This document shows, piece after piece, positions 1,472 to 60,918 of a DNA stretch of 64,000 nucleotides. This DNA comes from a phage: the sequence record PV946933.1; one strand, written 5' to 3'. Both the position numbers and the translations under genes were made by a program. Numbering within the stretch: the first letter of the stretch is position 1; every line of letters starts with the position of its first letter. The notes under the pieces are model-generated. The model ran no database searches. It saw only the letters and a list, made by a program, of their open reading frames with translations, and had not been told where the DNA came from.

Positions 1472-1473
1472 TA

Positions 1474-1497
1474 GGGAGCCTTCGGGCTCCCTTTTTT
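1474..1497 (+). terminator. rho-independent terminator
   Basis: GGGAGCC-TTCG-GGCTCCC then TTTTTT. Confidence 0.7.
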
Positions 1498-1521
1498 ATT
1501 TCAAAAATTTTTCACAAAACG

Positions 1522-1551
1522 GTTTACAAGCATAAAGCTTTATGGTACTAT
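1522..1551 (+). promoter_or_regulatory. sigma70-type phage early promoter
   Basis: -35 GTTTAC, 18-nt spacer, extended -10 TGGTACTAT; AT-rich upstream; conserved leader to GGAG. Confidence 0.6.
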
Positions 1552-1585
1552 ACAACTATCAACTGATACAGATTTGGAGAATAAA

Positions 1586-2554
1586 ATGAAAACTGTAACT
1601 ATCAATAAGGGTATCTACTTCGGTAAAGAAATCTCTGGAACTTTTGAGCTCTTAGGCGAATGGTTCCCAGATAATGCTCCAGTAGATGCACAAGGAGATG
1701 GTAAAGTTTTTGTTGAAATTGACGGTAAACGTCGCGGTGTTTGGGTTTACAAATCAGATATTTCATATGATGGTGTAAAAGTTGAAGAAGTTAAAGAATC
1801 ATATGAAGATATGAAAACCCGCATTAATAAAAGATTTAATGTTATGGGAATGATGACGAATGGTATTATTAATGGAAATATTCGTTCATTAATTATCTCT
1901 GGCGCAGCAGGTATTGGTAAAACGTATTCTTTAGATAAAGCTTTAAATAAAGCAAATGATAATGGATACATTGAATATAAAAGCATTAATGGTAAAATCT
2001 CTGGTATTGGTCTTTATGAACAGCTTTGGAATAATCGTGAAGAGAATTCTGTGCTTTTGATTGATGATGTGGATGTTTTCTCTGATATGGACATTCTTAA
2101 TCTTCTGAAAGCTGCTCTGGACACTGGAGAGACCCGTAAAGTTTGCTGGAGCACTGCATCTTCTTACTTAGAAGAAAAAGGCATTGACCGTGAGTTTGAA
2201 TTTAAAGGAACGATTGTTTTTATCACAAACGTTGACATTGACCGCGAATTAGACCGTGGTACTAAACTTGCTCCACATTTACAAGCATTAGTGTCCCGCT
2301 CAGTTTATTTAGATTTGGGTGTTCACACTAATGAAGAAATTATGGTCAGGGTTGAAGATGTTATTCTTTCAACCGACATGATGCAAAAGCGCGGTCTTTC
2401 TGATGAAGAAACTTATAAAGCATTATCATGGATGAAAGTCAATGTTAATCGTTTACGCAATGTTTCACTGCGTACTGCTCTTTATCTTGCTGACTTTATT
2501 ATGACCGACAAAAACGGTTGGGAAGAAATTGCTGAGGTTACTCTTCTGAAATAA
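1586..2554 (+). CDS. P-loop NTPase (AAA-type ATPase)
   Basis: Walker A GAAGIGKT, Walker B VLLIDDVD; ATG 6 nt after GGAG (track ORF starts at upstream TTG). Confidence 0.6.
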   Translation: MKTVTINKGIYFGKEISGTFELLGEWFPDNAPVDAQGDGKVFVEIDGKRRGVWVYKSDISYDGVKVEEVKESYEDMKTRINKRFNVMGMMTNGIINGNIRSLIISGAAGIGKTYSLDKALNKANDNGYIEYKSINGKISGIGLYEQLWNNREENSVLLIDDVDVFSDMDILNLLKAALDTGETRKVCWSTASSYLEEKGIDREFEFKGTIVFITNVDIDRELDRGTKLAPHLQALVSRSVYLDLGVHTNEEIMVRVEDVILSTDMMQKRGLSDEETYKALSWMKVNVNRLRNVSLRTALYLADFIMTDKNGWEEIAEVTLLK

Positions 2555-2655: not shown

Positions 2656-2958
2656 ATGTTATACTCAAAGGCTCGTGAAATTTACGAAACTAAGATTAAA
2701 GAAGCTGTATTTCAATTCGCAACGACAATGCGATGGACAAATGACTGGGAGTATTCAAAAAATCATAAGAAGCCCATGGTGACAAGAAAGGCTCATATGT
2801 TAGTGTTAATAGACCGTGAGCAGATTAAAGCCCGAGAAGCCCTCCAGAATCATAAAAAGGCTGCCTTTGAATGGTTTATGGATAACACTGCTCCTGAGAC
2901 TAAGAAAGCGGTAAGCGCATGGTTCAGTGGAAAAAATTGTGAAAGAAGTTTCTTTTAG
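2656..2958 (+). CDS. hypothetical protein
   Basis: 100 aa; GGAGG 5 nt upstream of this ATG. Confidence 0.4.
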   Translation: MLYSKAREIYETKIKEAVFQFATTMRWTNDWEYSKNHKKPMVTRKAHMLVLIDREQIKAREALQNHKKAAFEWFMDNTAPETKKAVSAWFSGKNCERSFF

Positions 2959-2960
2959 TG

Positions 2961-3013
2961 GTTTACAAGACTGTTCCTCTGTGGTACTATACAACTATCA
3001 ACTACGGAGGAAC
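2961..3013 (+). promoter_or_regulatory. early promoter with SD-pairing inverted repeat
   Basis: GTTTAC ... TGTGGTACTAT; GTTCCTC (2973-2979) complementary to GAGGAAC (3007-3013) covering the SD. Confidence 0.55.
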
Positions 3014-3018
3014 ACAAA

Positions 3019-3546
3019 ATGAACGCTAAAGATATTTTCAACTTGGTAAATTACAACGATGGTAAATTTAAATCTGAAGCACAAAGTAAGTTCTTTAATG
3101 ACATCTCAATCGGAGGTGAAATCACAGTTGATGGAGGACAAATTTACAAATCCCGCTGGAATTGGATCGTTATTATTGATGAGATCGGTATTGTAGAAAT
3201 TTACAAGAATACGAATAAAAATCGTACATTACACTGGTCTCGTGATACTAACGAACAGTACAAAAAGGATAAAGCATCTAAATTATCTCGTGTAACTCAA
3301 GAAGATATTGAGTTCATCAAGAAAGATATTTTAATGTATGATAATTTAATTGCTGAAGAGCAAGCTGTTATTGATAAATTTGATGAGATTAAAGCTTCTC
3401 GTGAAATTCCTGATTTTATGAAAGAATCAGTAAATGAACGATACACTCTCATTTCAGAGCGTATTGAAACTTACAAAAAGCAAAGAGCTGAACGCCAAAA
3501 TACTCTTCGGAAGTTTGAAGAACGGTTAAAGACGGTACTCGCATAA
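3019..3546 (+). CDS. hypothetical protein with C-terminal coiled coil
   Basis: 175-aa ORF behind early promoter and SD; charged heptad-like C-terminus. Confidence 0.5.
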   Translation: MNAKDIFNLVNYNDGKFKSEAQSKFFNDISIGGEITVDGGQIYKSRWNWIVIIDEIGIVEIYKNTNKNRTLHWSRDTNEQYKKDKASKLSRVTQEDIEFIKKDILMYDNLIAEEQAVIDKFDEIKASREIPDFMKESVNERYTLISERIETYKKQRAERQNTLRKFEERLKTVLA

Positions 3547-4908: not shown

Positions 4909-5937
4909 ATGAAAACTCGTTCTCAAATTGAAGATATGGTTCGTACTGCCAGTGATACTCGTAATGTTATGACATTTTTGTGTGAAAATAATTTAGACCC
5001 TGATAAAGTTAATCGTGCTATTCATCACTTTAAATATCTGAACAGCAGCGAATGGGTGCGTAATTTTAGCGAAGCGGGGTATATTACACAAATGACGGCT
5101 CGTGAGCAGCTCACCGATTTCTGTAAAACTATTGATTATAAAAATCCTCTATTTGTTCAAGGCGTTGGTCAAAGTAAGGTCGATTTATCATCTGGATTTT
5201 TCAATCCAAATCATTATCGTATTGAATGGAGATTTATTGCTCTGTTCCGTAGACAATTAAAGCAAATTTTATCAACTGCGAGTCGATTAAAAGGTTCTGA
5301 TATTAACTTAAAGAATCTGAAATTTGATGGTTATACTCTTCAGATGGAAGTAAGACCATTAAAAGAAAATAATAGAACTGCACGAATTAGCTTTAAACCT
5401 AATACAAAAAATTCTCTTTCAATTTGCGAATGCCTTAAATCGCAGTTGACAGAAGCATTTAAGTATATGGATGTTGTTGCCGCTGTTCAGTCTAAGATTT
5501 TACCTCGTTTTGAGCGATTTAAATTAGACACAACAACATATGAACTTGATATGATCGTTTCATTTAAATACGATTTTTTGAGAAAGGACGAAGTCCCGCA
5601 AGAGAAAAAGCAGGAAGTGCAAGATAACTTAAATTTAAATTTATCCAATTACTCATCAAACGATCCTAAATTTTGGATGTATAGCTCAGGTAATGAAGAT
5701 GCATGGAAATTCAATAAAGTGAATTTTCTTCCTGTTGAAAATCCGAGTCTTAAACCTGTTGAAAAATGGCATGCAGATGCGATTGAGAAGTCTCTTAAAG
5801 CAGTAGATGATGAACTCGTTAAAGCAACTAATGAAATGTTAGAAGTTGAAAAGGCGCTAGAAAAAGCTCAAGAAAAAGTCAAAAATCTCACGAAGCAACG
5901 TTCTAAACTGAACAATGCACTAAATGCACTGAACTAG
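4909..5937 (+). CDS. hypothetical protein (MKTR N-terminus / C-terminal coiled-coil family)
   Basis: 342 aa; starts MKTRSQI; C-terminal ~60 aa strongly coiled-coil-like. Confidence 0.55.
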   Translation: MKTRSQIEDMVRTASDTRNVMTFLCENNLDPDKVNRAIHHFKYLNSSEWVRNFSEAGYITQMTAREQLTDFCKTIDYKNPLFVQGVGQSKVDLSSGFFNPNHYRIEWRFIALFRRQLKQILSTASRLKGSDINLKNLKFDGYTLQMEVRPLKENNRTARISFKPNTKNSLSICECLKSQLTEAFKYMDVVAAVQSKILPRFERFKLDTTTYELDMIVSFKYDFLRKDEVPQEKKQEVQDNLNLNLSNYSSNDPKFWMYSSGNEDAWKFNKVNFLPVENPSLKPVEKWHADAIEKSLKAVDDELVKATNEMLEVEKALEKAQEKVKNLTKQRSKLNNALNALN

Positions 5938-5966
5938 TTTACTTTGCCACAAGGATGTGGTATAAT
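5937..5966 (+). promoter_or_regulatory. early promoter
   Basis: GTTTAC-N18-TGTGGTATAAT; near-identical 30-nt copy at 52074-52103. Confidence 0.6.
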
Positions 5967-5994
5967 GTTCTTACTTTCTACTGAGGAGATTAAT

Positions 5995-6996
5995 ATGACT
6001 CGTAACGAATATATCAAATCATTCAATAGCGTTATTGATGATAAAGCTATACCGATGTTTGGTCAAAATAGCGTTATTTCTATTATCAATCAATGGCTCA
6101 ATAGTGTTGACGCAAGTATTGTTTCTTCTGTTAAATTTATTCATGAAATTCGTAAAATTTCTAGCCGTGTAGATAAAGATGTTATCAAGAAAACCTTTAA
6201 AGAGTCTCGTCTTCTTTCATATTTGGTTAATCGGGATATTCTTGGTAATTTTGGGAAAGAAATTAAACGAACCAAAGATGTAGTAGGATATAATTGGTTC
6301 GGTGATGTTAATTCTTATCATCTTAATAATAAAGAAGACCCTGAGAATATTTTTACTCGTCGTTGGATTAGTAATTTCAGGCTTTTCAAAGGACAGATTC
6401 TAAAATCAGCTTCTAAATTATGTTATGGCGATTATCGTCAAATTCATCCTTTGGCTTCTGATATGATCATCATAAAAGAATATGAACTTGATAAAAATAA
6501 AGTAGCTATTTTTGTGAATTATGGATTTTTTACACCAGAAACTAACCAAAAGAACATTAATAAATTTTTCTCAATTGCTAGCACTATAACTCGTCAATTA
6601 GAAACCGCATTACTTTGTATGGAAACAGTAGAAAATATTCATACGTATCCTTTTAAGAATATATGCGGTTGGGAAGGATATAAAATTGTAGTTAGTCTTC
6701 GTGAAGTGAAATGTGCTTATTCATTAACTGATAAAGAAATTTATCAACAAAAATGTGAGGAAATTGTGAATACTCCTAAAGAAGAAACTACACTTGAGGA
6801 ACTAATGGATAATCTTGACGATTCGCCTGAACCAGTAGAAATTCGTCCAGAAGTTATTGCACTAGAAAAAGCTTATAAAGAAGCTCTAGAAATTTCTAAT
6901 AAAGCGCAGAAAGAATATGAGCAGGCTAAAAGGATTTGGGAAGAATCTGTTAATCGTCTGGATCGTCTTGAACAAGCTTTACAGTTAATTAAGTAA
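5995..6996 (+). CDS. hypothetical protein (MTR N-terminus / C-terminal coiled-coil family)
   Basis: ATG after GAGGAG downstream of promoter GTTTAC-N18-TATAAT; track ORF starts at TTG inside the promoter. Confidence 0.5.
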   Translation: MTRNEYIKSFNSVIDDKAIPMFGQNSVISIINQWLNSVDASIVSSVKFIHEIRKISSRVDKDVIKKTFKESRLLSYLVNRDILGNFGKEIKRTKDVVGYNWFGDVNSYHLNNKEDPENIFTRRWISNFRLFKGQILKSASKLCYGDYRQIHPLASDMIIIKEYELDKNKVAIFVNYGFFTPETNQKNINKFFSIASTITRQLETALLCMETVENIHTYPFKNICGWEGYKIVVSLREVKCAYSLTDKEIYQQKCEEIVNTPKEETTLEELMDNLDDSPEPVEIRPEVIALEKAYKEALEISNKAQKEYEQAKRIWEESVNRLDRLEQALQLIK

Positions 6997-10570: not shown

Positions 10571-12384
10571 CAATTGAAAAAGAAATTGAAGGATTGATTC
10601 ATAAAACTAATAAAGACCTTTTAAACGAGAATGCTAATAAAGATTCTCGTGTTTTTCCAACTCAACGGGACCTTATGGCTGGTATTGTGTCTAAACACAT
10701 TGCCAAAAATATGGTCCCGTCTTTTATTATGAAAGCGCATGAAAGCGGAATTATCCATTTCCACGATATTGATTATTCCCCTGCTCTTCCATTTACTAAT
10801 TGTTGTTTAGTAGATTTAAAAGGAATGCTTGAGAACGGATTTAAGCTCGGTAATGCACAGATTGAAACTCCTAAATCAATCGGCGTTGCTACTGCAATTA
10901 TGGCACAAATTACTGCGCAGGTTGCTTCTCATCAATATGGTGGAACGACTTTTGCGAATGTAGATAAAGTACTTTCTCCTTATGTTAAACGCACCTATGC
11001 AAAACATATTGAGGATGCAGAAAAATGGCAAATCGCTGATGCGTTGAATTATGCCCAATCTAAAACAGAAAAAGACGTATACGATGCATTCCAAGCTTAT
11101 GAATATGAAGTAAATACTCTCTTTAGTTCAAACGGACAAACGCCTTTTGTAACAATTACATTTGGTACGGGAACTGACTGGACTGAACGGATGATTCAGA
11201 AAGCAATTCTGAAAAATCGTATTAAAGGTCTCGGTCGTGATGGGATAACTCCTATTTTCCCTAAACTTGTTATGTTCGTTGAAGAAGGTGTTAATCTTTA
11301 TAAAGACGATCCGAACTATGATATTAAGCAGCTTGCTCTAGAGTGTGCAAGCAAAAGAATGTATCCTGACATCATTTCGGCTAAGAACAATAAAGCTATC
11401 ACAGGTTCATCTATTCCTGTTTCTCCAATGGGTTGCCGTAGTTTCTTGAGCGTATGGAAAGATTCGACTGGTAATGAAATTCTTGATGGACGTAATAATC
11501 TTGGCGTTGTAACACTGAATCTTCCTCGCATTGCGTTAGATTCTTATATTGGAACACAATTCAATGAACAGAAATTTGCCGAATTGTTCAATGAACGAAT
11601 GGATTTATGTTTTGAAGCATTGATGTGTAGAATAAGTTCCTTAAAAGGAGTTAAAGCGACTGTTGCTCCTATTCTTTATCAAGAAGGTGCATTCGGGGTT
11701 CGTCTTAAACCTGATGACGATATAATTGAGTTATTTAAAAACGGTAGAAGTTCAGTGTCCCTAGGATACATTGGTATTCACGAATTGAATATTCTTGTCG
11801 GTCGTGATATTGGACAAGAAATTTTAACTAAAATGAATGCTCGTCTTAAGCAGTGGACTGAAAGAACCGGATTTGCTTTTAGTTTGTATTCTACTCCTGC
11901 TGAAAACCTGTGCTATCGCTTCTGTAAACTTGATACCGAAAAATATGGAAGTGTAAAGGATGTTACTGATAAAGGCTGGTACACTAACAGTTTCCACGTT
12001 TCAGTAGAAGAAAATATTACTCCGTTTGAAAAGATTTCTCGCGAAGCCCCGTATCATTTCATTGCAACAGGTGGTCACATTTCTTATGTTGAACTTCCTG
12101 ATATGAAAAATAACCTAAAAGGTCTTGAGGCTGTATGGGATTATGCTGCACAACATTTAGATTATTTTGGTGTTAATATGCCAGTAGATAAATGTTTTAC
12201 ATGCGGAAGTACCCATGAAATGACTCCTACTGAAAACGGATTTGTTTGTTCTATTTGTGGAGAAACTGATCCTAAAAAGATGAACACCATAAGAAGAACT
12301 TGCGGTTATTTGGGAAATCCGAACGAGCGCGGATTTAATCTTGGCAAAAATAAAGAAATCATGCATAGGGTTAAACACCAATGA
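10567..12384 (+). CDS. nrdD: anaerobic ribonucleoside-triphosphate reductase
   Basis: 605 aa uninterrupted; C-terminal glycyl-radical motif RRTCGYLG; recognised as T4 NrdD. Confidence 0.95.
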   Translation: MTIEKEIEGLIHKTNKDLLNENANKDSRVFPTQRDLMAGIVSKHIAKNMVPSFIMKAHESGIIHFHDIDYSPALPFTNCCLVDLKGMLENGFKLGNAQIETPKSIGVATAIMAQITAQVASHQYGGTTFANVDKVLSPYVKRTYAKHIEDAEKWQIADALNYAQSKTEKDVYDAFQAYEYEVNTLFSSNGQTPFVTITFGTGTDWTERMIQKAILKNRIKGLGRDGITPIFPKLVMFVEEGVNLYKDDPNYDIKQLALECASKRMYPDIISAKNNKAITGSSIPVSPMGCRSFLSVWKDSTGNEILDGRNNLGVVTLNLPRIALDSYIGTQFNEQKFAELFNERMDLCFEALMCRISSLKGVKATVAPILYQEGAFGVRLKPDDDIIELFKNGRSSVSLGYIGIHELNILVGRDIGQEILTKMNARLKQWTERTGFAFSLYSTPAENLCYRFCKLDTEKYGSVKDVTDKGWYTNSFHVSVEENITPFEKISREAPYHFIATGGHISYVELPDMKNNLKGLEAVWDYAAQHLDYFGVNMPVDKCFTCGSTHEMTPTENGFVCSICGETDPKKMNTIRRTCGYLGNPNERGFNLGKNKEIMHRVKHQ

Positions 12385-12851
12385 ATTACGATAGATTTTA
12401 TCCCTGCGATTTTGTAAATGGCCCTGGATGCAGGGTCGTTCTTTTCGTTACGGGGTGTTTGCATAAATGTGAAGGGTGTTATAATAAATCAACATGGAAT
12501 GCTAGAAATGGCGTTCCATTCACTGGTGAAACACTAGAACAATTAATTGAATGTTTGAATAATGATTATATAGAAGGATTAACTATAACTGGAGGAGACC
12601 CTCTTTATCCTGATAACCGAGATGCTGTTCATTGCATTGTTCAAACGGTAAAAAATCTTTATCCAAATAAAAGCATTTGGTTGTGGACAGGGTACAAGTT
12701 TGAAGATATTAAACAACTAGAAATGCTTAAATATGTTGATGTTATTATTGATGGGAAGTATGAGAAAAATCTTCCGACCAAAAAGCTGTGGCGAGGTTCA
12801 GATAATCAGCGACTTTGGTCAAATACCGATGGGGTGTGGAAACATGATTAA
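12381..12851 (+). CDS. nrdG: anaerobic RNR activating enzyme (radical SAM)
   Basis: 156 aa; Cys cluster CLHKCEGCYN; coupled to nrdD. Confidence 0.9.
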   Translation: MNYDRFYPCDFVNGPGCRVVLFVTGCLHKCEGCYNKSTWNARNGVPFTGETLEQLIECLNNDYIEGLTITGGDPLYPDNRDAVHCIVQTVKNLYPNKSIWLWTGYKFEDIKQLEMLKYVDVIIDGKYEKNLPTKKLWRGSDNQRLWSNTDGVWKHD

Positions 12852-12965: not shown

Positions 12966-13181
12966 ATGTATAAATTTCGTAAAGGTTTAGCTGATTTTCT
13001 TACAACTGTAACGTTCTTTTTGTTTATGGCAGTTGGAGCTATTTTCCTTATTCCTTTTATTGCTATATTTTTCGTGATTAGCTTAATTTCTCCAGAAAAA
13101 GGCTTATCTTCTAGTGAGTTCAATGAGCGTCTGGATAAAATTACTAACAAACTGAATGCTGTTCTTGATAAAAAGGCTTAA
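12966..13181 (+). CDS. small membrane protein
   Basis: 71 aa from ATG after AAGGG; long hydrophobic stretch. Confidence 0.45.
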   Translation: MYKFRKGLADFLTTVTFFLFMAVGAIFLIPFIAIFFVISLISPEKGLSSSEFNERLDKITNKLNAVLDKKA

Positions 13182-13183
13182 TT

Positions 13184-13495
13184 GTGATTAGTTTTGAGCG
13201 GTATGTGGTAGAGAGTTGGAAGGGTTTTGATATGTTCGGTAATGACTATTATTTCTATGAATGTAGTCTAAATCCTAGTTTTTGGGCTGGACGAGAACGA
13301 GAACTTGAAGAAATTAATAACCGTGCTGAATTGTTAGGTGAATTACCTACGGTTTATTTTACCTTTGATGCATCTGGATTTGTTATCCAGGTTTATTTTC
13401 CTGAAGAAAATTCTGGCGATGATTCTGTTAACCCGCCATACTGGGCTTATCAAGGAATTATTTCTCGTGGAACAAAACTCGAACTTAAAGAATAA
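13184..13495 (+). CDS. hypothetical protein
   Basis: 103-aa ORF with GTG start just after upstream stop. Confidence 0.4.
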   Translation: MISFERYVVESWKGFDMFGNDYYFYECSLNPSFWAGRERELEEINNRAELLGELPTVYFTFDASGFVIQVYFPEENSGDDSVNPPYWAYQGIISRGTKLELKE

Positions 13496-14556: not shown

Positions 14557-14757
14557 ATGAATCCTGAATCTAAATTATCGCAACGAATTGCCGAAGCTCG
14601 TCGTCAGTTCTTTGAAAATATGATAGCCCAAGGTATTGATGACGAAGTTTTTCTGAACTGGTTTTGGAATCACAAATATTCAAGCTGTTCAGGGGCAATA
14701 TTAATATCAGCCGCAATGATGTATGAAGGCTGGAAAGGTGCCAAACAGTTTAGCTAA
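14557..14757 (+). CDS. hypothetical protein
   Basis: 66 aa, followed by terminator hairpin. Confidence 0.45.
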   Translation: MNPESKLSQRIAEARRQFFENMIAQGIDDEVFLNWFWNHKYSSCSGAILISAAMMYEGWKGAKQFS

Positions 14758-14775
14758 GGGCTTCGGCCCTTTTTG
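14758..14775 (+). terminator. rho-independent terminator
   Basis: GGGC-TTCG-GCCC then TTTTT. Confidence 0.6.
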
Positions 14776-15354: not shown

Positions 15355-15620
15355 AATTTATTAATATTTCTATTACTATTGAAAATTATGGAATTTTCTA
15401 TGTTGACCAATATATGAAAATTTCATTTTTCCCAAATAAGACTGGTGTTGGATATTGGGAAAGCCATGTTTCTGAATTAAATGAAAGCGAATATGTTAGC
15501 ACACATGAAAAGTTTTTAGACTTTTTATATCATGCTGATTTAACTAGTCATTACATAGATATTCATGAATTTAAAAAGATGATGGAGAAAGTGTTCCAAG
15601 CATACTGTTTACTTAGATAA
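15351..15620 (+). CDS. hypothetical protein
   Basis: 89-aa ORF. Confidence 0.4.
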   Translation: MKFINISITIENYGIFYVDQYMKISFFPNKTGVGYWESHVSELNESEYVSTHEKFLDFLYHADLTSHYIDIHEFKKMMEKVFQAYCLLR

Positions 15621-15633
15621 CTGATATCCTCTA

Positions 15634-17145: not shown

Positions 17146-17192
17146 GCTTTATAAATTTTTGGTAAAATAAACCAAAACAATGAGGATATTAA

Positions 17193-18395: not shown

Positions 18396-18412
18396 AGGGC
18401 TTCGGCCCTTTA
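18396..18412 (+). terminator. terminator-like hairpin after alpha-gt
   Basis: GGGC-TTCG-GCCC then TTT. Confidence 0.5.
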
Positions 18413-18434
18413 GCTTTATACGGAGTTTGATATA

Positions 18435-23102: not shown

Positions 23103-23105
23103 TAG

Positions 23106-23122
23106 AGGGCTTCGGCCCTTTA
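23106..23122 (+). terminator. terminator-like hairpin after gene 45
   Basis: GGGC-TTCG-GCCC then TTT. Confidence 0.5.
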
Positions 23123-23153
23123 TAATTTACACTAAAACTTGAATGAGGAAATT

Positions 23154-24113: not shown

Positions 24114-24114
24114 T

Positions 24115-24678: not shown

Positions 24679-24679
24679 A

Positions 24680-25048: not shown

Positions 25049-25052
25049 GCAA

Positions 25053-25072: not shown

Positions 25073-25088
25073 GGAGTATAATATATCA

Positions 25089-27858: not shown

Positions 27859-27939
27859 ATACAAGTAATATAAATCTATACTTATGAAAAAGAGATGATT
27901 CTGGACCCTTTGGATTCCCTAAAATTTTTTCACAAAACT

Positions 27940-27969
27940 GTTTACATCCCTGTTCTTCCATGGTACTAT
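27940..27969 (+). promoter_or_regulatory. early promoter
   Basis: GTTTAC-N18-TGGTACTAT plus conserved leader. Confidence 0.6.
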
Positions 27970-28006
27970 ACAACTATCAACTACTGATACGGATTTGGAG
28001 AATGAA

Positions 28007-28387
28007 ATGAAAATCGCTATTTTGGTTATTGCATTGGGTCTTACTGGTTGTGTAGCTCAAGGACCGGTAGTAAATCAGTCTGATGTAGGAAAAATTGTAA
28101 ACTGTTCAAGCAAATTTTATAATCCTAATGTCAAGTGTTATAAAGAAGCTCCAAAACAGACAGTAGAACAAATGCAGGCGAATTTTGACGAAGCTATTCG
28201 TCCAGATGAATCTGCACAAGCATATCGTAATTCAGATGTGATTACGCGTGAAGAAAAAATTGAAAACTACTGCGCCATGCTTTGGGCAAATTGGGCTAAT
28301 AATTACCAATGGCGTACAGGTAAAAACGCTCCGATGGAGTATGTAGTGAATTCTTATAATTCATGTGTAAAAAATTTGACTAAGTGA
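28007..28387 (+). CDS. putative lipoprotein
   Basis: 126 aa; signal peptide with lipobox LTGC; flanked by terminator and promoter upstream. Confidence 0.5.
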   Translation: MKIAILVIALGLTGCVAQGPVVNQSDVGKIVNCSSKFYNPNVKCYKEAPKQTVEQMQANFDEAIRPDESAQAYRNSDVITREEKIENYCAMLWANWANNYQWRTGKNAPMEYVVNSYNSCVKNLTK

Positions 28388-32616: not shown

Positions 32617-34044
32617 GTGGTAGAAATTATTCTTTCTCATCTCATATTTGATCAAGCTTATTTTTCAAAAGTTTGGCCATATATGGATTCAGAATATTTT
32701 GAAAGTGGTCCAGCTAAAAATACGTTCAAATTAATTAAATCTCATGTTAATGAGTACCATAGCGTTCCATCTATTAATGCGTTAAATGTTGCATTAGAAA
32801 ATAGTTCATTTACTGAAACAGAATATTCTGGTGTAAAAACACTTATTTCAAAACTGGCTGATTCTCCGGAAGACCACAGTTGGTTAGTAAAAGAAACGGA
32901 AAAATATGTTCAGCAAAGGGCGATGTTTAATGCTACGTCTAAAATAATTGAAATTCAAACTAATGCTGAACTTCCTCCGGAAAAACGAAATAAGAAAATG
33001 CCGGATGTTGGTGCTATTCCTGACATCATGCGCCAAGCATTATCAATTTCATTTGATAGTTACGTTGGTCATGATTGGATGGATGACTATGAAGCACGTT
33101 GGCTATCTTATATGAATAAAGCCCGTAAGGTTCCATTTAAACTCAAAATTCTAAATAAAATTACTAAAGGCGGAGCTGAGACTGGAACACTGAACGTTTT
33201 AATGGCTGGTGTTAACGTTGGTAAGTCATTAGGATTATGTTCATTAGCAGCAGATTATTTACAGCTCGGACATAATGTTCTTTACATTTCCATGGAAATG
33301 GCAGAAGAAGTCTGTGCTAAGCGTATTGATGCTAATATGCTTGATGTTTCTCTTGATGACATTGATGATGGACATATTTCTTACGCTGAATATAAAGGAA
33401 AAATGGAAAAATGGCGTGAGAAATCTACTCTCGGTCGTTTAATCGTTAAACAGTATCCTACTGGTGGAGCAGACGCTAATACATTTCGTTCTCTTTTGAA
33501 CGAATTGAAGCTCAAGAAGAATTTTGTTCCAACAATCATTATTGTCGACTATCTAGGTATTTGTAAATCTTGCCGCATCAGAGTTTACTCAGAAAATAGT
33601 TACACAACTGTTAAAGCTATCGCAGAGGAATTGCGTGCTCTGGCTGTTGAAACCGAAACTGTTCTTTGGACTGCAGCGCAGGTTGGTAAGCAAGCTTGGG
33701 ATTCTTCTGATGTTAACATGAGCGATATTGCAGAATCCGCCGGTCTTCCAGCAACAGCTGATTTTATGCTTGCGGTCATTGAAACCGAGGAGTTAGCAGC
33801 TGCTGAACAACAACTCATTAAGCAAATCAAATCACGATATGGTGATAAGAATAAATGGAATAAGTTTTTGATGGGTGTTCAAAAAGGAAATCAAAAATGG
33901 GTAGAAATTGAGCAAGATTCTACTCCAACTGAAGTGAACGAAGTAGCAGGTTCACAGCAGATTCAGGCTGAACAGAACCGCTATCAAAGAAATGAATCGG
34001 CTCGAGCTCAGTTAGATGCTTTGGCAAATGAATTAAAATTTTAG
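32617..34044 (+). CDS. 41: replicative DNA helicase gp41 (DnaB-like)
   Basis: 475 aa, GTG start after AAGGAG; Walker A GVNVGKS; recognised as T4 gp41. Confidence 0.95.
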   Translation: MVEIILSHLIFDQAYFSKVWPYMDSEYFESGPAKNTFKLIKSHVNEYHSVPSINALNVALENSSFTETEYSGVKTLISKLADSPEDHSWLVKETEKYVQQRAMFNATSKIIEIQTNAELPPEKRNKKMPDVGAIPDIMRQALSISFDSYVGHDWMDDYEARWLSYMNKARKVPFKLKILNKITKGGAETGTLNVLMAGVNVGKSLGLCSLAADYLQLGHNVLYISMEMAEEVCAKRIDANMLDVSLDDIDDGHISYAEYKGKMEKWREKSTLGRLIVKQYPTGGADANTFRSLLNELKLKKNFVPTIIIVDYLGICKSCRIRVYSENSYTTVKAIAEELRALAVETETVLWTAAQVGKQAWDSSDVNMSDIAESAGLPATADFMLAVIETEELAAAEQQLIKQIKSRYGDKNKWNKFLMGVQKGNQKWVEIEQDSTPTEVNEVAGSQQIQAEQNRYQRNESARAQLDALANELKF

Positions 34045-34081
34045 TTTACAAGCTGACAAGACTATGGTATAGTAGTCTTGT
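34044..34081 (+). promoter_or_regulatory. early promoter embedded in stem-loop (PeSL-like)
   Basis: GTTTAC (34044-34049), -10 TGGTATAGT; 9-bp inverted repeat ACAAGACTA/TAGTCTTGT brackets the -10. Confidence 0.55.
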
Positions 34082-34102
34082 TGGTTAAATGAGGAGATTT
34101 TT

Positions 34103-34285
34103 ATGGAATTGGTAAAAGTAGTTTTTATGGGGTGGTTTAAGAATGAAAGCATGTTTACTAAAGAAATCACAATGATGAAAGATGACGTTCAATGGGCTAC
34201 TACTCAATATGCTGAAGTTAATAAAGCATTAGTTAAAGCTTTCATTGATGACAAGAAAGTATGTGAAGTGGATTGCCGAGGATAA
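34103..34285 (+). CDS. dmd: Dmd (antitoxin against host RnlA/LsoA)
   Basis: 60 aa immediately after gene 41; recognised as T4 Dmd. Confidence 0.75.
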   Translation: MELVKVVFMGWFKNESMFTKEITMMKDDVQWATTQYAEVNKALVKAFIDDKKVCEVDCRG

Positions 34286-34286
34286 T

Positions 34287-34508
34287 ATGCATATTGTTTT
34301 ATTTAAACCTACTCCGTATAATGTCAGGAAAAATACTCAATTCAAAGCACTTGTTGCAGATACGTGGGAATTGGTGTTAGATATTCCAGCAGAAGAAAGT
34401 CCTCCATTTGGTCGAGTGGAATTTATTAAATTTGCTGTGCGCCCTACAAAGCGGCAGATTCGCCAATGCAAAAGATACTTTCGTAAAATCGTCAAGTTAG
34501 AGAAATAG
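34287..34508 (+). CDS. hypothetical protein (61.4 position)
   Basis: 73 aa from ATG after GAGGA. Confidence 0.4.
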   Translation: MHIVLFKPTPYNVRKNTQFKALVADTWELVLDIPAEESPPFGRVEFIKFAVRPTKRQIRQCKRYFRKIVKLEK

Positions 34509-34531
34509 TTATTGATGCTAGTAAAATAGTA

Positions 34532-34574
34532 GTTTACAAGCTGATAGAGTTGTGTTATAGTAATTCTATCAGCT
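34532..34574 (+). promoter_or_regulatory. early promoter embedded in stem-loop (PeSL-like)
   Basis: GTTTAC, -10 TGTTATAGT; 10-bp inverted repeat AGCTGATAGA/TCTATCAGCT brackets the -10. Confidence 0.5.
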
Positions 34575-34593
34575 AATCGCGGAGAAAAGAAAA

Positions 34594-34848
34594 ATGATGC
34601 TAGTTAATAGAGAATATCAGTTTAAATCAGAAGAAGATTTGGAAAAATTCGCAAGTGGTTGTGAACTGAATAGACGCACAGCTAAAGTCATAGGATTAAA
34701 ACCCTTTACAGTTCTAGATTGTGAAGTTTCTAAATTCCGCAGAGGGTGTTCTATTAGCGGTCATGCTCTGGTTGATGGGAACACATTTTTCTTTGTTTTT
34801 AGCGTCAGAGAACTTTTATTGATTAACGAACTTGAGGAAATAAAATAG
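34594..34848 (+). CDS. hypothetical protein
   Basis: 84-aa ORF downstream of hairpin-embedded promoter. Confidence 0.45.
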   Translation: MMLVNREYQFKSEEDLEKFASGCELNRRTAKVIGLKPFTVLDCEVSKFRRGCSISGHALVDGNTFFFVFSVRELLLINELEEIK

Positions 34849-34905
34849 TTTACTTTTGTTGGAAATTGAGATACTATATAAACATAAACTACTGAGGAGA
34901 TTATC

Positions 34906-35202
34906 ATGAAAAAATTTGTTTTTGCTGCAATTTTTGCTTTGGCTTCTTGTGCTGCTCAGCCTGCTATGGCGGGTTATGATAAAGATTTGTGCGAATGGTC
35001 TATGACTGCAGATCAGACTGAGGTTGAAACTCAAATTGAAGCAGATATTATGAATATCGTTGAGCGTGATCGCCCTGAAATGAAAGCTGAAGTACAAAAA
35101 CAGCTTAAGTCTGGTGGTGGTGTAATGCAGTATAATTATGTTTTGTATTGCGATAAAAACTTCAATAATAAAAATATCATCGCTGAAGTGGTAGGTGAAT
35201 AA
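34906..35202 (+). CDS. sp: spackle periplasmic protein
   Basis: 98 aa; signal peptide; recognised as T4 Sp (61.3). Confidence 0.85.
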   Translation: MKKFVFAAIFALASCAAQPAMAGYDKDLCEWSMTADQTEVETQIEADIMNIVERDRPEMKAEVQKQLKSGGGVMQYNYVLYCDKNFNNKNIIAEVVGE

Positions 35203-36965: not shown

Positions 36966-36987
36966 GCGTCGTCCTCCTTTAAATTAA

Positions 36988-36995
36988 ATATTTAT
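36988..36995 (-). promoter_or_regulatory. late-promoter-like box for the opposite-strand small membrane gene
   Basis: ATAAATAT on - strand ~13 nt before AAAGGAGGA and ATG; same arrangement as upstream of holin t. Confidence 0.35.
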
Positions 36996-37014
36996 CGCAA
37001 ATTTTACAAAATTT

Positions 37015-37061
37015 GTTTACTTTCTCAGCTTGCTGTGGTATTATAAAATAAACTGCTGAGG
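37015..37061 (+). promoter_or_regulatory. early promoter with SD-pairing inverted repeat
   Basis: GTTTAC-N18-TGTGGTATTAT; TCTCAGC (37023-37029) complementary to GCTGAGG (37055-37061) at the SD. Confidence 0.55.
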
Positions 37062-37069
37062 ATAATATA

Positions 37070-37507
37070 ATGATTAATAAAATTGTACATGAAATGGCTT
37101 TAAACGGAGATTCATATAAAATATCTGCCGTAGTTGAAAATTTCATACTTAATAAAGTAAAAGAATATTTCACTGATTGTTCAGTTAGTTATCAAGAAAA
37201 AATGGTTTTAATCGACGATACTGAAAAATCAAATAATTTGTTTTGTTCGAATTTTACAACTAAGAAGCGTACTAGAAGATTTGATATTGTCATTTCTCGC
37301 AATGGTAAAAAGCATATAATTGAAATCAAACACCAAGTTGGTGGAGGTACAGCCATTGATTCGGTTGGAATATATCTGGAAGATAAAGATAAATTAAAAG
37401 AATACACAAAAACTGAAAATCCTGTGTCATTGATGATATTAGATTTTTTGCCATGCGGATATTATCCGCGTAATAAGTGGACAAAAAGAGAATCATTTAC
37501 TGATTGA
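37070..37507 (+). CDS. putative PD-(D/E)xK-fold nuclease-like protein
   Basis: 145 aa; helix with Glu (AVVENF) followed by RRFDIVISRNGKKHIIEIK (D-x13-E-x-K); own early promoter; directly upstream of dam. Confidence 0.5.
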   Translation: MINKIVHEMALNGDSYKISAVVENFILNKVKEYFTDCSVSYQEKMVLIDDTEKSNNLFCSNFTTKKRTRRFDIVISRNGKKHIIEIKHQVGGGTAIDSVGIYLEDKDKLKEYTKTENPVSLMILDFLPCGYYPRNKWTKRESFTD

Positions 37508-48354: not shown

Positions 48355-48383
48355 AATTTAAAATTTTTCATAAAACTATATAC

Positions 48384-48426
48384 ATCAGTAGTTGATTATG
48401 GTACTATATCAATATCAACTACTGAT
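48384..48426 (+). promoter_or_regulatory. -10 element inside 13-bp perfect inverted repeat
   Basis: ATCAGTAGTTGAT (48384-48396) and ATCAACTACTGAT (48414-48426) flank TATGGTACTAT; no canonical GTTTAC -35. Confidence 0.45.
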
Positions 48427-48451
48427 ACAGAAAAACAACTTGGAGAATAAA

Positions 48452-48721
48452 ATGGAAAACTTAATTATCATCGAACAATCTTTCAACGATTATGGTACGG
48501 CTTATGGTTATCGTGCGATAATGGAAGATTCTCGTGGATGTGTTATCGATATTGCTGAATGTAAAGATTTACTGCAGCTTTTGAAGATTGTTCGTAAAAA
48601 TTGGGATTGTGAAAACATTAAAGTTCGTGTTGTAACGGAAGAAGAAACTGTTTTTCATGATGTAAAATTTGCCAAAGGTGCTGCTACTCTTCTGAAACGC
48701 ATCACTCCAATGTTCAATTAA
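48452..48721 (+). CDS. hypothetical protein
   Basis: 89 aa from ATG after GGAG in conserved leader. Confidence 0.45.
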   Translation: MENLIIIEQSFNDYGTAYGYRAIMEDSRGCVIDIAECKDLLQLLKIVRKNWDCENIKVRVVTEEETVFHDVKFAKGAATLLKRITPMFN

Positions 48722-50256: not shown

Positions 50257-52074
50257 ATGATTAAGAATGAAATTAAAATTCTGAGCGATATTGAACATAT
50301 CAAAAAGCGTAGTGGCATGTATATTGGCTCTTCTGCTAATGAAATGCATGAGCGCTTTCTGTTTGGTAAATGGGAAAGTGTTCAGTATGTACCTGGTCTT
50401 GTTAAGCTTATTGATGAAATTATCGATAACTCAGTAGATGAAGGTATTCGTACTAAGTTTAAATTCGCAAATAAAATTAATGTTACCATTAAAAATAATC
50501 AGGTAACAGTTGAAGATAACGGTCGTGGTATTCCACAAGCGATGGTTAAAACACCTACGGGTGAAGAAATTCCTGGTCCTGTTGCTGCCTGGACTATTCC
50601 AAAAGCAGGCGGTAACTTTGGTGATGATAAAGAACGCGTCACTGGCGGTATGAACGGTGTTGGTTCTAGTTTAACTAACATTTTTTCTGTGATGTTTGTC
50701 GGTGAAACTGGTGATGGCCAAAATAATATTGTAGTTCGTTGTTCAAACGGCATGGAAAATAAATCATGGGAAACTATTCCTGGAAAATGGAAAGGAACTC
50801 GTGTTACTTTCATTCCCGATTTTATGTCATTTGAAACTAATGAGCTGTCTCAAGTTTATCTTGACATTACACTGGACCGTCTCCAGACACTTGCAGTAGT
50901 TTATCCTGATATTCAATTTACCTTTAATGGTAAAAAGGTTCAGGGTAATTTTAAGAAATATGCACGTCAATATGATGAGCATGCTATCGTTCAAGAACAA
51001 GAAAACTGTTCTATTGCGGTCGGTCGTTCACCGGATGGTTTTCGTCAATTAACATACGTCAATAACATTCATACTAAGAATGGTGGCCATCACATTGACT
51101 GCGTTATGGATGATATTTGTGAAGACCTTATTCCACAAATCAAACGTAAGTTCAAAATTGATGTAACTAAAGCACGTGTTAAAGAATGTTTGACTATCGT
51201 TATGTTTGTTCGTGATATGAAAAACATGCGATTTGACTCTCAAACTAAAGAGCGTCTGACTTCTCCATTTGGTGAAATTCGTAGTCATATTCAGCTTGAT
51301 GCCAAAAAGATTTCACGTGCTATTTTAAATAATGAAGCAATTTTAATGCCAATCATTGAAGCTGCCCTTGCTCGTAAATTGGCGGCAGAAAAAGCAGCAG
51401 AAACTAAAGCAGCTAAAAAGGCTTCTAAAGCTAAGGTTCATAAACATATTAAAGCGAATCTTTGTGGTAAAGATGCTGATACTACTCTTTTCTTGACTGA
51501 GGGTGATTCTGCTATTGGATATCTTATTGATGTTCGTGATAAAGAACTTCATGGTGGTTATCCATTGCGTGGTAAAGTTCTCAACAGTTGGGGTATGTCA
51601 TATGCTGATATGCTTAAAAACAAAGAACTGTTTGATATTTGCGCAATCACTGGATTAGTTCTTGGTGAAAAAGCTGAAAACTTGAATTATCATAATATTG
51701 CTATTATGACTGATGCTGACCATGATGGTCTAGGAAGCATTTATCCTTCTCTGCTCGGATTTTTTAGTAATTGGCCAGAATTGTTTGAACAAGGAAGAAT
51801 TCGCTTTGTCAAAACTCCTGTAATCATCGCTCAGGTCGGTAAAAAACAAGAATGGTTTTATACAGTCGCTGAATATGAGAGTGCTAAAGATGCTCTACCT
51901 AAACATAGCATCCGTTATATTAAGGGACTTGGCTCTTTGGAAAAATCTGAGTATCGTGAGATGATTCAAAATCCAGTATATGATGTTGTTAAACTTCCTG
52001 AGAATTGGAAGGAGCTTTTTGAAATGCTCATGGGAGATAATGCTGACCTTCGTAAAGAATGGATGAGCCAATAG
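50257..52074 (+). CDS. 39: DNA topoisomerase II large subunit gp39 (GyrB-like, uninterrupted)
   Basis: 605 aa from MIKNEIKILSDIEH; one continuous ORF covering the regions split into genes 39 and 60 in T4. Confidence 0.93.
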   Translation: MIKNEIKILSDIEHIKKRSGMYIGSSANEMHERFLFGKWESVQYVPGLVKLIDEIIDNSVDEGIRTKFKFANKINVTIKNNQVTVEDNGRGIPQAMVKTPTGEEIPGPVAAWTIPKAGGNFGDDKERVTGGMNGVGSSLTNIFSVMFVGETGDGQNNIVVRCSNGMENKSWETIPGKWKGTRVTFIPDFMSFETNELSQVYLDITLDRLQTLAVVYPDIQFTFNGKKVQGNFKKYARQYDEHAIVQEQENCSIAVGRSPDGFRQLTYVNNIHTKNGGHHIDCVMDDICEDLIPQIKRKFKIDVTKARVKECLTIVMFVRDMKNMRFDSQTKERLTSPFGEIRSHIQLDAKKISRAILNNEAILMPIIEAALARKLAAEKAAETKAAKKASKAKVHKHIKANLCGKDADTTLFLTEGDSAIGYLIDVRDKELHGGYPLRGKVLNSWGMSYADMLKNKELFDICAITGLVLGEKAENLNYHNIAIMTDADHDGLGSIYPSLLGFFSNWPELFEQGRIRFVKTPVIIAQVGKKQEWFYTVAEYESAKDALPKHSIRYIKGLGSLEKSEYREMIQNPVYDVVKLPENWKELFEMLMGDNADLRKEWMSQ

Positions 52075-52103
52075 TTTACTTTACCACAAGGATGTGGTAT
52101 AAT
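52074..52103 (+). promoter_or_regulatory. early promoter
   Basis: GTTTAC-N18-TGTGGTATAAT; copy of 5937-5966 with one mismatch. Confidence 0.6.
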
Positions 52104-52128
52104 TAATTGGGCAAATGAGGATATTGAA

Positions 52129-52332
52129 ATGAAATCATATAAAGTAAATTTAGAACTTTTTGATAAAGCAGTTCACCGAGAATATAGAATCATTCAACGC
52201 TTTTTCGATATGGGAGAAGCCGAAGAGTTTAAAAACCGCTTTAAGGATATTAGAGATAAAATTCAATCCGACACCGCAACTAAAGATGAACTACTAGAAG
52301 TTGCTGAAGTTATTAAACGCAATATGAATTAA
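52129..52332 (+). CDS. hypothetical protein (rIIA.1 position)
   Basis: 67-aa ORF downstream of promoter GTTTAC-N18-TATAAT. Confidence 0.45.
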
Positions 52333-55779: not shown

Positions 55780-56337
55780 ATGCAGAAAACGAATCCGGGT
55801 TTACAGAGACTATTTCAGATTCCGACATTTACCCTATCGAACAATGACTTGACTAGTGAAATGAAGGTCAAAATTGCTGATACAGCAAGATATTCTTTAA
55901 AACAAAATCCTAATCAGGATAAAGCAGAAGTTATTGAAAGATGTCGTATCGCTGTGTACGCAGAGTTTTTTGTAGCAGATTGGCTAAGCGGGTATGTTAA
56001 CAAAGGCCAAGAGGATGTTAATGACCCGTATACATACGCATGGGATGTATTGGCGCATCCAAAATACTGTGGGCTTCGTGTAGAAGTCAAAACACATCAA
56101 ACTGACTCACGTTGGATTTCGGTAACAACCGGATGCAGCGGAGAGTATCCATACGGTTCTGGAATAAATCTAGGGCCCATTCTAAATCATCAAGTCGCTG
56201 ACTGTATAATTATATTCAACACTAAAGAAATTCATCCAGGTGTCATCCAGTACACTCCGAAGTTCATCGGTGATAGAGAAGACCTTCGTAAGGTTGTAAG
56301 AAAAAGCAACTACAACGGATGGTATCTTTCCATTTAA
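55780..56337 (+). CDS. denB: endonuclease IV (DenB)
   Basis: 185 aa in T4 denB position after rIIB. Confidence 0.75.
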   Translation: MQKTNPGLQRLFQIPTFTLSNNDLTSEMKVKIADTARYSLKQNPNQDKAEVIERCRIAVYAEFFVADWLSGYVNKGQEDVNDPYTYAWDVLAHPKYCGLRVEVKTHQTDSRWISVTTGCSGEYPYGSGINLGPILNHQVADCIIIFNTKEIHPGVIQYTPKFIGDREDLRKVVRKSNYNGWYLSI

Positions 56338-56353
56338 AAATTTTCACAAAACG

Positions 56354-56383
56354 GTTTACATACCACAAGGACTGTGGTACTAT
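56354..56383 (+). promoter_or_regulatory. early promoter
   Basis: GTTTAC-N18-TGTGGTACTAT plus conserved leader. Confidence 0.6.
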
Positions 56384-56417
56384 ACAACTATCAACTGATA
56401 CGGATTTGGAGAATAAA

Positions 56418-56624
56418 ATGTTTACTACAGCTGAATTAAAACGAGCAAAAGCTAAGAAAGGGAAAGGAAAATATAAAGCTGAATTAGTTAAAGAACTTCA
56501 GTTTGCTGAGGCTGAATTGAATTCAATGATTATTCAAAATGCTCCAGAAACTGAAATTGCTCTTAAACGTATTGCGAATAAGTGTCTTCGTGATGCAATT
56601 GTCGATCTTTTAGCGGATTATTGA
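56418..56624 (+). CDS. hypothetical protein (ndd-upstream cluster)
   Basis: 68 aa from ATG after GGAG in conserved leader. Confidence 0.4.
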   Translation: MFTTAELKRAKAKKGKGKYKAELVKELQFAEAELNSMIIQNAPETEIALKRIANKCLRDAIVDLLADY

Positions 56625-56976: not shown

Positions 56977-57071
56977 AAATTTTGAATTCTGTACTTATTG
57001 CTTGTGCGTGGTGGGTTGCGCAAGTTTCGGCAGTAGTGATTGGTATTCACATTTATTACGAATATTTTTAA
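56973..57071 (+). CDS. tiny hydrophobic peptide
   Basis: 32-aa ORF MKILNSVLIACAWWVAQVSAVVIGIHIYYEYF. Confidence 0.25.
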   Translation: MKILNSVLIACAWWVAQVSAVVIGIHIYYEYF

Positions 57072-57078
57072 AAAAGTT

Positions 57079-57131
57079 GTTTACAAGACTGTTCCTCTGT
57101 GGTATTATTACTCTATCAACTACGGAGGAAC
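57079..57131 (+). promoter_or_regulatory. early promoter with SD-pairing inverted repeat
   Basis: near-copy of 2961-3013: GTTTACAAGACTGTTCCTCTGTGGTATTAT ... CGGAGGAAC. Confidence 0.55.
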
Positions 57132-57136
57132 AGAAA

Positions 57137-57250
57137 ATGAAAAAGATTGTTAAAGCTATATGGAATGTAGTTATAATACTAGTAGTTTTGAGTATATTCC
57201 CAATCGTTTTAATGATTGATGTATTAAACGCTTACTTTGGATTTATGTGA
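57137..57250 (+). CDS. tiny hydrophobic peptide
   Basis: 37 aa from ATG after GGAGG in promoter leader. Confidence 0.3.
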   Translation: MKKIVKAIWNVVIILVVLSIFPIVLMIDVLNAYFGFM

Positions 57251-60157: not shown

Positions 60158-60162
60158 TTTTA

Positions 60163-60192
60163 GGGAGAGCCGAGGCTCTCCCTTTTTATTTT
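60163..60192 (+). terminator. rho-independent terminator before motA promoter
   Basis: GGGAGAGCC-GAG-GCTCTCCC then TTTTTATTTT. Confidence 0.7.
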
Positions 60193-60211
60193 AAAATTTT
60201 TTCACAAAACG

Positions 60212-60241
60212 GTTTACAACCAAAGCATACTGTGGTACTAT
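60212..60241 (+). promoter_or_regulatory. early promoter (motA)
   Basis: GTTTAC-N18-TGTGGTACTAT plus conserved leader. Confidence 0.6.
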
Positions 60242-60282
60242 ACAACTATCAACTACTGATACAGAATTACGGAGATTAGAAA

Positions 60283-60918
60283 ATGTCTAAAGTAACTTAC
60301 ATCATCAAAGCTTCTAACGATGTTCTGAATGAAAAAACTGCTGCGATTTTAATTACCATTGCTAAGAAAGATTTCATTACAGCTGCAGAAGTTCGTGAGG
60401 TGCATCCAGATTTAGGTAATGCAGTAGTTAATAGTAATATTGGGGTATTGATTAAAAAAGGCCTGGTAGAGAAATCTGGTGATGGATTAATCATTACTGG
60501 TGAAGCTCAGGATATTATTTCAAATGCAGCAACTTTATACGCACAGGAAAATGCTCCTGAACTGTTGAAAAAACGAGCAACACGTAAAGCTCGCGAAATT
60601 ACTTCTGATATGGAAGAAGATAAAGACTTCATGTTAAAACTTTTAGATGAAAATGGATTTGTTCTTAAAAAGATTGAAACTTATCGTAGTAACTATCTCG
60701 CTATTTTAGAAAAACGCACTCACGGAATTCGTAATTTTGAAATTAACAACAATGGAAATATGCGAATTTTTGGATACAAAATGATGGAACATCATATTCA
60801 GAAATTTACTGATATCGGAATGTCATGTAAAATCGCTAAAAACGGTAATGTGTATCTTGACATTAAACGCTCAGCAGAAAACATTGAAGCTGTAATCACC
60901 GTAGCATCTGAACTGTGA
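60283..60918 (+). CDS. motA: middle-transcription activator MotA
   Basis: 211 aa; recognised as T4 MotA. Confidence 0.9.
   Translation: MSKVTYIIKASNDVLNEKTAAILITIAKKDFITAAEVREVHPDLGNAVVNSNIGVLIKKGLVEKSGDGLIITGEAQDIISNAATLYAQENAPELLKKRATRKAREITSDMEEDKDFMLKLLDENGFVLKKIETYRSNYLAILEKRTHGIRNFEINNNGNMRIFGYKMMEHHIQKFTDIGMSCKIAKNGNVYLDIKRSAENIEAVITVASEL

Follow-up and report, generated by a model that had tools for sequence, protein, structure and literature searches.

Dispersed early promoter-leader cassettes of a Tequatrovirus as likely recombination substrates for accessory gene modules

The near-identical promoter and leader blocks dispersed over 64 kb of a T4-type phage genome (Tequatrovirus) are likely to be immediate-early expression cassettes, which would recombine as short direct repeats and so bring about the gain, loss and replacement of modules. 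Each cassette would comprise a very strong sigma-70 promoter followed by a G-poor, unstructured leader of about 30 nt and an SD-ATG, and in the best copies the SD region is the optimal 11-nt RegB/S1 site, GGAGAAUAAAA. We propose that, as a result of this combination of a strong promoter with a RegB site in the SD, transcripts are made at once post-infection, after which RegB inactivates them. The promoter and SD/RegB blocks would be kept by selection, and the rest of the leader would be alike through descent of the cassettes from one another and through a patchwise recombination of which mosaic cassettes are the visible trace. Since the cassettes are direct repeats heading small accessory genes, they offer short homologies for recombination between co-infecting relatives or between neighbouring cassettes. 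The outcome would be the insertion, deletion and replacement of whole promoter-plus-gene modules, events whose signatures are found among relatives and whose presumed mechanism has earlier been proposed as PeSL shuffling.

The window and its early promoter cassettes

The window, i.e. the whole stretch of DNA analysed (64 kb, record PV946933.1), is from a Tequatrovirus and runs from nrdC.11 to motA in an orientation reverse to that of the T4 map. It is collinear throughout with reversed T4 between these two genes, spanning the rIIA/rIIB origin of the T4 map, and its first 8 kb are 96-97% identical to many Tequatrovirus genomes; regB is outside the window (T4 62279-62740).

A GTTTAC(A) -35 element, a 17-bp spacer and a TGn extended -10 of the form TAnnnT occur together at 19 sites, and the copies flagged by the original prediction are the most similar subset of these 19 early-promoter cassettes, all of which are on the + strand (Table 1). 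From 5' to 3' a cassette consists of an A/T-rich UP region at about -40 to -60, present as the block AAAATTTTTCACAAAAC, the GTTTAC(A) -35, the 17-bp spacer, TGn with TACTAT or TATTAT, ACAACTATCAACT, the G-poor leader, the SD and the ATG, and promoter, SD and start codon precede mostly small accessory ORFs. Judging from the sequence, the discriminator and the start site, the latter about 7 nt after the -10, would both fall within ACAACTATCAACT. The gap of 18 nt (N18) originally placed after GTTTAC was an error, as 15 nt (N15) separate GTTTAC from TGGTACTAT, which gives the canonical 17 bp from TTTACA to TACTAT. The reading of the blocks as early promoters with leaders was on the other hand sound, and their anatomy fits the T4 early-promoter class (PMC2988021, PMC1524935). 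With this class (Hinton 2010, PMC2988021; Nolan 2006, PMC1524935) the cassettes share the UP, GTTTAC at -36 to -31, the TGn extended -10, extra consensus positions and a location 5' of early genes and novel ORFs, a consensus beyond the core elements being a known property of T4 early promoters (PMC2988021). Members of this class are expected to be used by the unmodified host RNA polymerase right after infection. The flagged copies differ, however, in forming a sub-family that also shares the discriminator/initial transcribed block ACAACTATCAACT and most of the leader. The T4 records NC_000866 and AF158101 carry no promoter features.

All four copies of the promoter-leader block first recognised are present (1522-1588, 27940-28009, 56354-56420 and 60212-60285), and the two additional pairs are likewise real, 2961-3021 and 57079-57139 sharing 90% identity over 67 nt and the same spacer, and 5937-5966 and 52074-52103 being identical at 29 of 30 positions over -35, spacer and -10 with unrelated leaders. 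The genes behind the copies had also been named correctly. The 60212 copy is followed by motA, with Pfam MotA_activ and MotCF matches, the 27940 copy by the lipoprotein gene imm.1, encoding a DUF5481 protein with an LTGC lipobox, and the 56354 copy by a 68-aa ORF upstream of ndd, where the genes are small ORFs; nrdC.10 follows the 1522 copy, and its P-loop NTPase matches are weak and all sub-threshold.

A 22-nt core, TGGTACTATACAACTATCAACT, with 0.01 occurrences expected by chance (shuffles), is found exactly at 1543, 2982, 27961, 56375 and 60233 of the 64-kb window and with three mismatches at 48399. This near-exact sixth site falls within an additional family member at 48357-48454 (the 48378 cassette), which was absent from the first list. 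An upstream block, TTTCACAAAACGGTTTAC, recurs without mismatch at 1510, 56342 and 60200 and with a single mismatch at 27928. In pairwise comparisons of the four copies, UP and -35 are identical at 21-23 of 24 positions and the stretch from -10 to ATG shows 43-46 matches over 46-53 nt, and just 5-7 of 15 spacer positions are identical. Across 539 phage records, essentially all of them Tequatrovirus, the 46-nt -10-to-ATG block is found at 1814 places, and in T4 it is 100% identical before nrdC.10; in IMG/VR the core is present in only about six phage contigs. Terminator hairpins are located directly 5' of the 1522 and 60212 copies.

Table 1. Early promoter cassettes and adjoining terminators in the 64-kb window
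Feature	Coordinates	Strand	Details
Intrinsic-terminator hairpin	1473..1497	+	GGGAGCC-TTCG-GGCTCCC and T-run; ends nrdC.11; 30 nt 5' of the -35
nrdC.10 cassette	1504..1588	+	UP 1504-1521; GTTTAC 1522-1527; spacer 1528-1542; TGGTACTAT 1543-1551; leader 1552-1575; RegB-consensus SD GGAGAATAAAA 1576-1586; ATG 1586-1588
nrdC.8 cassette	2943..3021	+	Same -10 and initial transcribed block; short leader CTAC-GGAGGAACACAAA-ATG; pairs with 57079
Early promoter	5935..5997	+	-35/spacer/-10 29/30 identical to 52074
imm.1 cassette	27922..28009	+	SD GGAGAATGAAATG, one mismatch to RegB consensus
Three tandem early promoters	34014..34908	+	-35 at 34044, 34532 and 34848; small ORF after each
Early promoter	36985..37072	+	-35 at 37015
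Family member not listed before	48357..48454	+	-35 ATATAC; TGGTACTAT; leader ...CTACTGATACAGAA...; RegB-consensus GGAGAATAAAA 48442-48452; ATG 48452
Early promoter	52072..52131	+	Pairs with 5937
Cassette of 68-aa ndd-upstream ORF	56336..56420	+	RegB-consensus SD 56408-56418
Cassette paired with 2961	57061..57139	+	Identical spacer; -10/initial transcribed allele TGGTATTATTACTCTATCAA
Intrinsic-terminator hairpin	60162..60185	+	Upstream of motA cassette
motA cassette	60194..60285	+	SD GGAGATTAGAA

The RegB/S1 site

RegB, acting with ribosomal protein S1, shuts early mRNAs off by cutting their SD (PMC1702504, PMC3014915), and the optimal 11-nt T4 RegB/S1 cleavage site has been published as GGAGAAUAAAA (PMC1702504). 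Three copies end in GGAGAATAAAA (at 1576, 48442 and 56408), and exact matches to GGAGRAYARAA number three in the 64-kb window (0.41 expected), all of them in cassettes. The copies at 27996, 60270 and 3007 deviate from GGAGRAYARAA, as do the remaining cassettes at one or more positions, so the exact 11-nt consensus is found in only three cassettes. Among T4 transcripts, motA RNA is reported to be a good RegB substrate and the nrdC.8 SD to be cleaved moderately (PMC1702504). The single-stranded context required by RegB is furthermore provided, since the leader folds are no more stable than those of shuffled sequences. The cassettes thus have GGAGAAUAAAA within the SD of early genes and unstructured RNA in common with known RegB/S1 targets (Durand 2006, PMC1702504; Uzan 2010, PMC3014915); the T4 motA and nrdC.8 sites have been tested, and those of the present phage are putative.

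Breakpoints against relatives

Blastn alignments of the window with T4, SH-1, BCH953P2, PYps14T, slur14, LF73P1 and PTE-Eco15 were chained, and 11 of the 62 unique indel/replacement edges were found to fall inside the 19 cassettes, which amount to 3% of the window, as against 1.9 expected (p=2e-6). Edges are however mostly located at gene junctions in any case, and at the level of junctions 9 of the 19 belonging to cassettes compare with 31 of 100 others, which with seven comparators is only a trend (p=0.13). In the seven-member ACAACTATCAA-type family the corresponding figures are 5 of 7 junctions versus 31 of 100 others (p=0.04), and the addition of two genomes to the comparison gave few new events. 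The original notion that the cassettes coincide with module boundaries is hence borne out by the number of edges inside them, but the excess over other gene junctions is not significant. In a 161-nt survey around the 1522 copy, about a third of the related records had their break within the cassette, close to window position 1489, 1538 or 1562.

Many of the events outside cassettes are homing-endonuclease genes or an intron, represented in T4 by I-TevII, mobA, mobB, mobC, segA and segF. Of the inserts in relatives, one has a sub-threshold GIY-YIG match, one has HNH-like motifs recognised by eye and no Pfam match, and still others bear a homing-endonuclease annotation in PTE-Eco15.

Modules and mosaic cassettes

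The proposal that the cassettes act as recombination substrates finds support in inserted genes located between two cassettes and in cassettes that are mosaic between phages. At the nrdC.10 locus the cassette is interrupted in PYps14T (+493 bp), where two extra ORFs, one of them DUF4031, separate its -10/CTATCAA and GGAGAATAAAATG parts and are followed by a second promoter, and in slur14 (+722 bp), which has three successive promoters at this site. An extra ORF of 233-239 bp is situated at the ATG of the imm.1 cassette in six of the seven relatives, and the unit 34510-34841, which extends from promoter to promoter, is missing in six of the seven. SH-1, the seventh, carries at 34848 a module of 282 bp between two copies of GTTTACTTTTGTT, and the promoter with its -35 at 37015 forms the left edge of a segment of 545-1422 bp that is missing from T4, SH-1, LF73P1 and PTE-Eco15. 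Five relatives have a truncated ORF behind the 48357-48454 cassette or none at all, the breakpoint being at 48458-48466, and in PYps14T the 48378 cassette is fused to the next gene by way of GGAGAAT. Upstream of motA, a module of 322-323 bp with a 75-aa ORF is found between two cassettes in PYps14T and LF73P1. Modules flanked by two cassettes are present at 1562, 34854 and 60244.

Mosaic cassettes were observed at loci 2961, 27940, 56354 and 57079. At 56354 one promoter is combined with three different leader-plus-gene combinations across phages, the spacer at 27940 is either ATCCCTGTTCTTCCA, AAGACTGTTCCTCTG (the 2961/57079 spacer) or a hybrid, and the alleles ACAACTATCAA and TACCCTATCAA segregate at both 2961 and 57079. 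Several breakpoints, on the other hand, involve start-codon microhomology only (ATGAAAAT at 28007) and not the full cassette.

Translocation of modules between cassette loci was also considered and is rejected, since none of the inserted modules occurs at a second locus in eight genomes. Of about 505 close relatives, 137 have the motA-upstream module next to motA, with only 32 extra matching places in 976 records. The modules of this sample are accordingly fixed at their loci, so that free re-integration at any cassette is not seen and they are best described as locus-specific presence/absence polymorphisms and not as freely hopping elements.

Some further details of these loci may be recorded here. 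An intact 89-aa ORF (48452-48720) lies behind the 48378 cassette, and what T4 retains of it between motB and cef, owing to an in-frame internal deletion (ATGGAAAA|TTCGCTAAAGG), is a small ORF that has no annotation. The imm.1 gene (28002-28020) and the ndd-upstream gene (56846-56870) have GAATGAAATGAAAATCGCT in common, so that their homology spans the SD, the ATG and the first four codons (MKIA), and the T4 deletion junction 56420/56861 uses this same stretch. At 37540-37585 there is a half-cassette remnant, TCACAAAACG-TGTTAGTATTACTATCAAATACATATG, with a UP-like part and the -10/CTATCAA block and without -35 or spacer, which forms the right-hand border of the 545-bp segment that T4 lacks.

Selection on the leader and alternative explanations

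Divergence at orthologous loci was determined for the window against seven relatives in 93 locus-by-genome comparisons and amounts to 0% in the -35, 2.3% in the extended -10, 2.6% in SD..ATG, 2.8% in the UP, 3.1% in the first 60 nt of coding sequence, 5.8% in the leader and 6.0% in the spacer. The promoter and SD/RegB blocks are thus constrained and the rest of the leader is no more so than the spacer. It had originally been argued that conservation exceeds what promoter function needs, and this is in part accounted for by the RegB/S1 site GGAGAATAAAA, but since the orthologous leader diverges like the spacer (5.8% against 6.0%), additional purifying selection on the leader is unsupported.

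These values bear directly on whether the likeness of the cassettes might be purely functional, all blocks including the leader being selected for expression and the position at boundaries reflecting the need of acquired genes for a promoter. The high conservation of the -35, UP, extended -10 and SD..ATG at orthologous loci is what such an explanation would entail, and the lack of significant enrichment at the junction level and the fact that inserted modules usually bring their own promoter also speak for it. We nevertheless find it rather unlikely, because a leader that diverges like the spacer between orthologs is near-identical among paralogs, because hybrid spacers and swapped -10/initial-transcribed alleles at one and the same locus in different phages amount to exchange within cassettes, and because crossovers fall within shared blocks such as CTATCAA and GGAGAAT. 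We infer that the identity of paralogous leaders stems from common descent and patchwise exchange and not from a separate function of the leader.

Considerably less probable is the idea that the conserved leader, ATCAACTGATACGGATTT, is a specific RNA element, either bound by some factor of phage or host or acting as a structured regulator, which would define a post-transcriptional regulon beyond RegB. The block GATAC(G/A)GATTT 5' of GGAG is indeed common to the 1522, 27940 and 56354 copies, and added 5' sequence stimulates RegB/S1 cleavage in vitro (PMC1702504), but the motA and 48378 copies retain only GATACAGAA of this block, the leader tolerates an ACT indel of 3 nt as well as an A/G change, and Durand et al. 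found that no particular sequence 5' of GGAG is needed (PMC1702504). Moreover, relatives combine the same promoter with leaders that are quite different, and orthologous loci show no surplus conservation. A structured leader RNA can likewise be rejected, since seven folded leaders gave z-scores of -0.8 to +1.1 relative to shuffled controls, which makes them unstructured, and a Rfam scan of the entire window returned no family at gathering score. A DNA palindrome, TATCA-N-TGATA, was rejected as a fixed protein site as well, since its spacing is either 2 or 5 nt on account of the ACT indel. It is similarly improbable that the leader block, AUCAACU[ACU]GAUACGGAUUU, is a functional cis-element that marks a subset of immediate-early mRNAs and owes its homogeneity to selection instead of descent or conversion. 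If it were, nrdC.10, imm.1, the ndd-upstream ORF and partly motA would share a common post-transcriptional fate, for example through S1/RegB or a different factor being recruited, or through decay that depends on the 5' end.

Finally, an origin of the repeats by recent duplication or as an assembly artefact, devoid of biological meaning, as the very high identity of the shared blocks could suggest, is practically out of the question and already refuted, since the spacers differ (5-7/15), which excludes recent duplication of whole cassettes, and the same copies occupy the same loci in T4 and in hundreds of independently sequenced phages.

Other repeats and segments

A second family of dispersed repeats consists of terminator-type hairpins of the form (A/G)GGGCTTCGGCCC(C/T) and variants, at 14744-14771, 18389-18418, 23099-23128, 25046-25075, 50182-50211, 55457-55484 and 55692-55721. 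Four relatives have a 219-bp ORF inserted exactly at the copy at 25046, and the copy at 55692 has a 207-bp insert at a distance of 47 bp. A stop/SD/start junction, TGAGGAAATTnTGA, is repeated at 6756-6780, 23144-23168, 48722-48746, 52331-52376 and 58380-58404, and the edges at 48725 (PYps14T) and 58387 (BCH953P2, +148 bp ORF) coincide with copies of it, so that short translation-initiation repeats also mark module boundaries.

At 51674-51739 the window is without a 1.1-kb segment of T4 (3911-2793) that contains mobA, 60.1 and the translational-bypass region of gene 60, so that the large topoisomerase subunit (genes 39 and 60) is apparently encoded by a single uninterrupted gene, as annotated in PYps14T. 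Relative to T4 the window furthermore has no I-TevII (nrdD intron), mobC, mobB or segF, and where T4 has the segA/beta-gt region (T4 23555-25487) the window contains about 1.57 kb that does not align; the sites of T4 differences are 11102, 12381-12401, 17177-17202, 29532-31101 and 38955-39038. Further genes of GIY-YIG- or HNH-like type are found in relatives at 2548, 10570, 18575 and 20047. The segments 13166-13491 (324 bp) and 15365-15626 (260 bp) of the window are replaced or absent in several relatives, and neither is bounded by an early-promoter cassette.

Relation to known systems and significance

PeSL (promoter-early stem-loop) cassettes, for which excised mini-circles detectable by inverse PCR are a further criterion, were described in RB49/phi1 and then in the T4/PST and KVP40/nt-1 pairs, and are composed of an A/T-rich region, an early promoter, an SD and an ATG, being located at indel boundaries with crossovers between -10 and ATG (PMC2839356, PMC4122927). 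The T4/PST pair belongs to the same lineage as the window, and one of its described exchanges, the ndd.4/.5 swap, concerns the region of the 56354 copy (PMC4122927). The present cassettes agree with PeSLs (Arbiol 2010, PMC2839356; Comeau 2014, PMC4122927) in having an A/T-rich region, a sigma-70-type early promoter, an SD and a start codon, in being direct repeats of plastic regions, where they precede small accessory ORFs and lie at indel/replacement boundaries of close relatives, and in their crossovers between -10 and ATG. They differ in that the canonical stem-loop is directly upstream of just 3 of the 19 promoters (1522, 39364 and 60212), counted as strict GC-rich hairpins with a T-run, the definition of Comeau 2014 (PMC4122927) also admitting weaker and variable stems in the T4/PST group, in that the modules of our sample reside at fixed loci, and in that the surplus over other gene junctions is only a trend. 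Given this match, the cassettes are a correct rediscovery and the kind of element is already known; the additions made here are the reading of the 3' end as a RegB consensus, the block-wise divergence and a more cautious estimate of boundary specificity.

A looser analogy can be drawn to integron gene cassettes, which are likewise small promoter-dependent accessory genes gained and lost as units at repeated sites, but here there is neither an integrase nor an attC-type structured site, and each module has a promoter of its own. General homologous or microhomology recombination would most simply account for the exchange.

For T4-type phages the cassettes explain how newly acquired small genes are expressed immediately, how they are silenced by RegB minutes later and how accessory modules are swapped between relatives, all of which is already in the literature for T4 and its close relatives. 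The window provides a clean worked example, in which no extra purifying selection is seen on the leader, junctions with a cassette exceed other gene junctions in plasticity only moderately, and the modules are presence/absence polymorphisms of particular loci rather than hopping elements.
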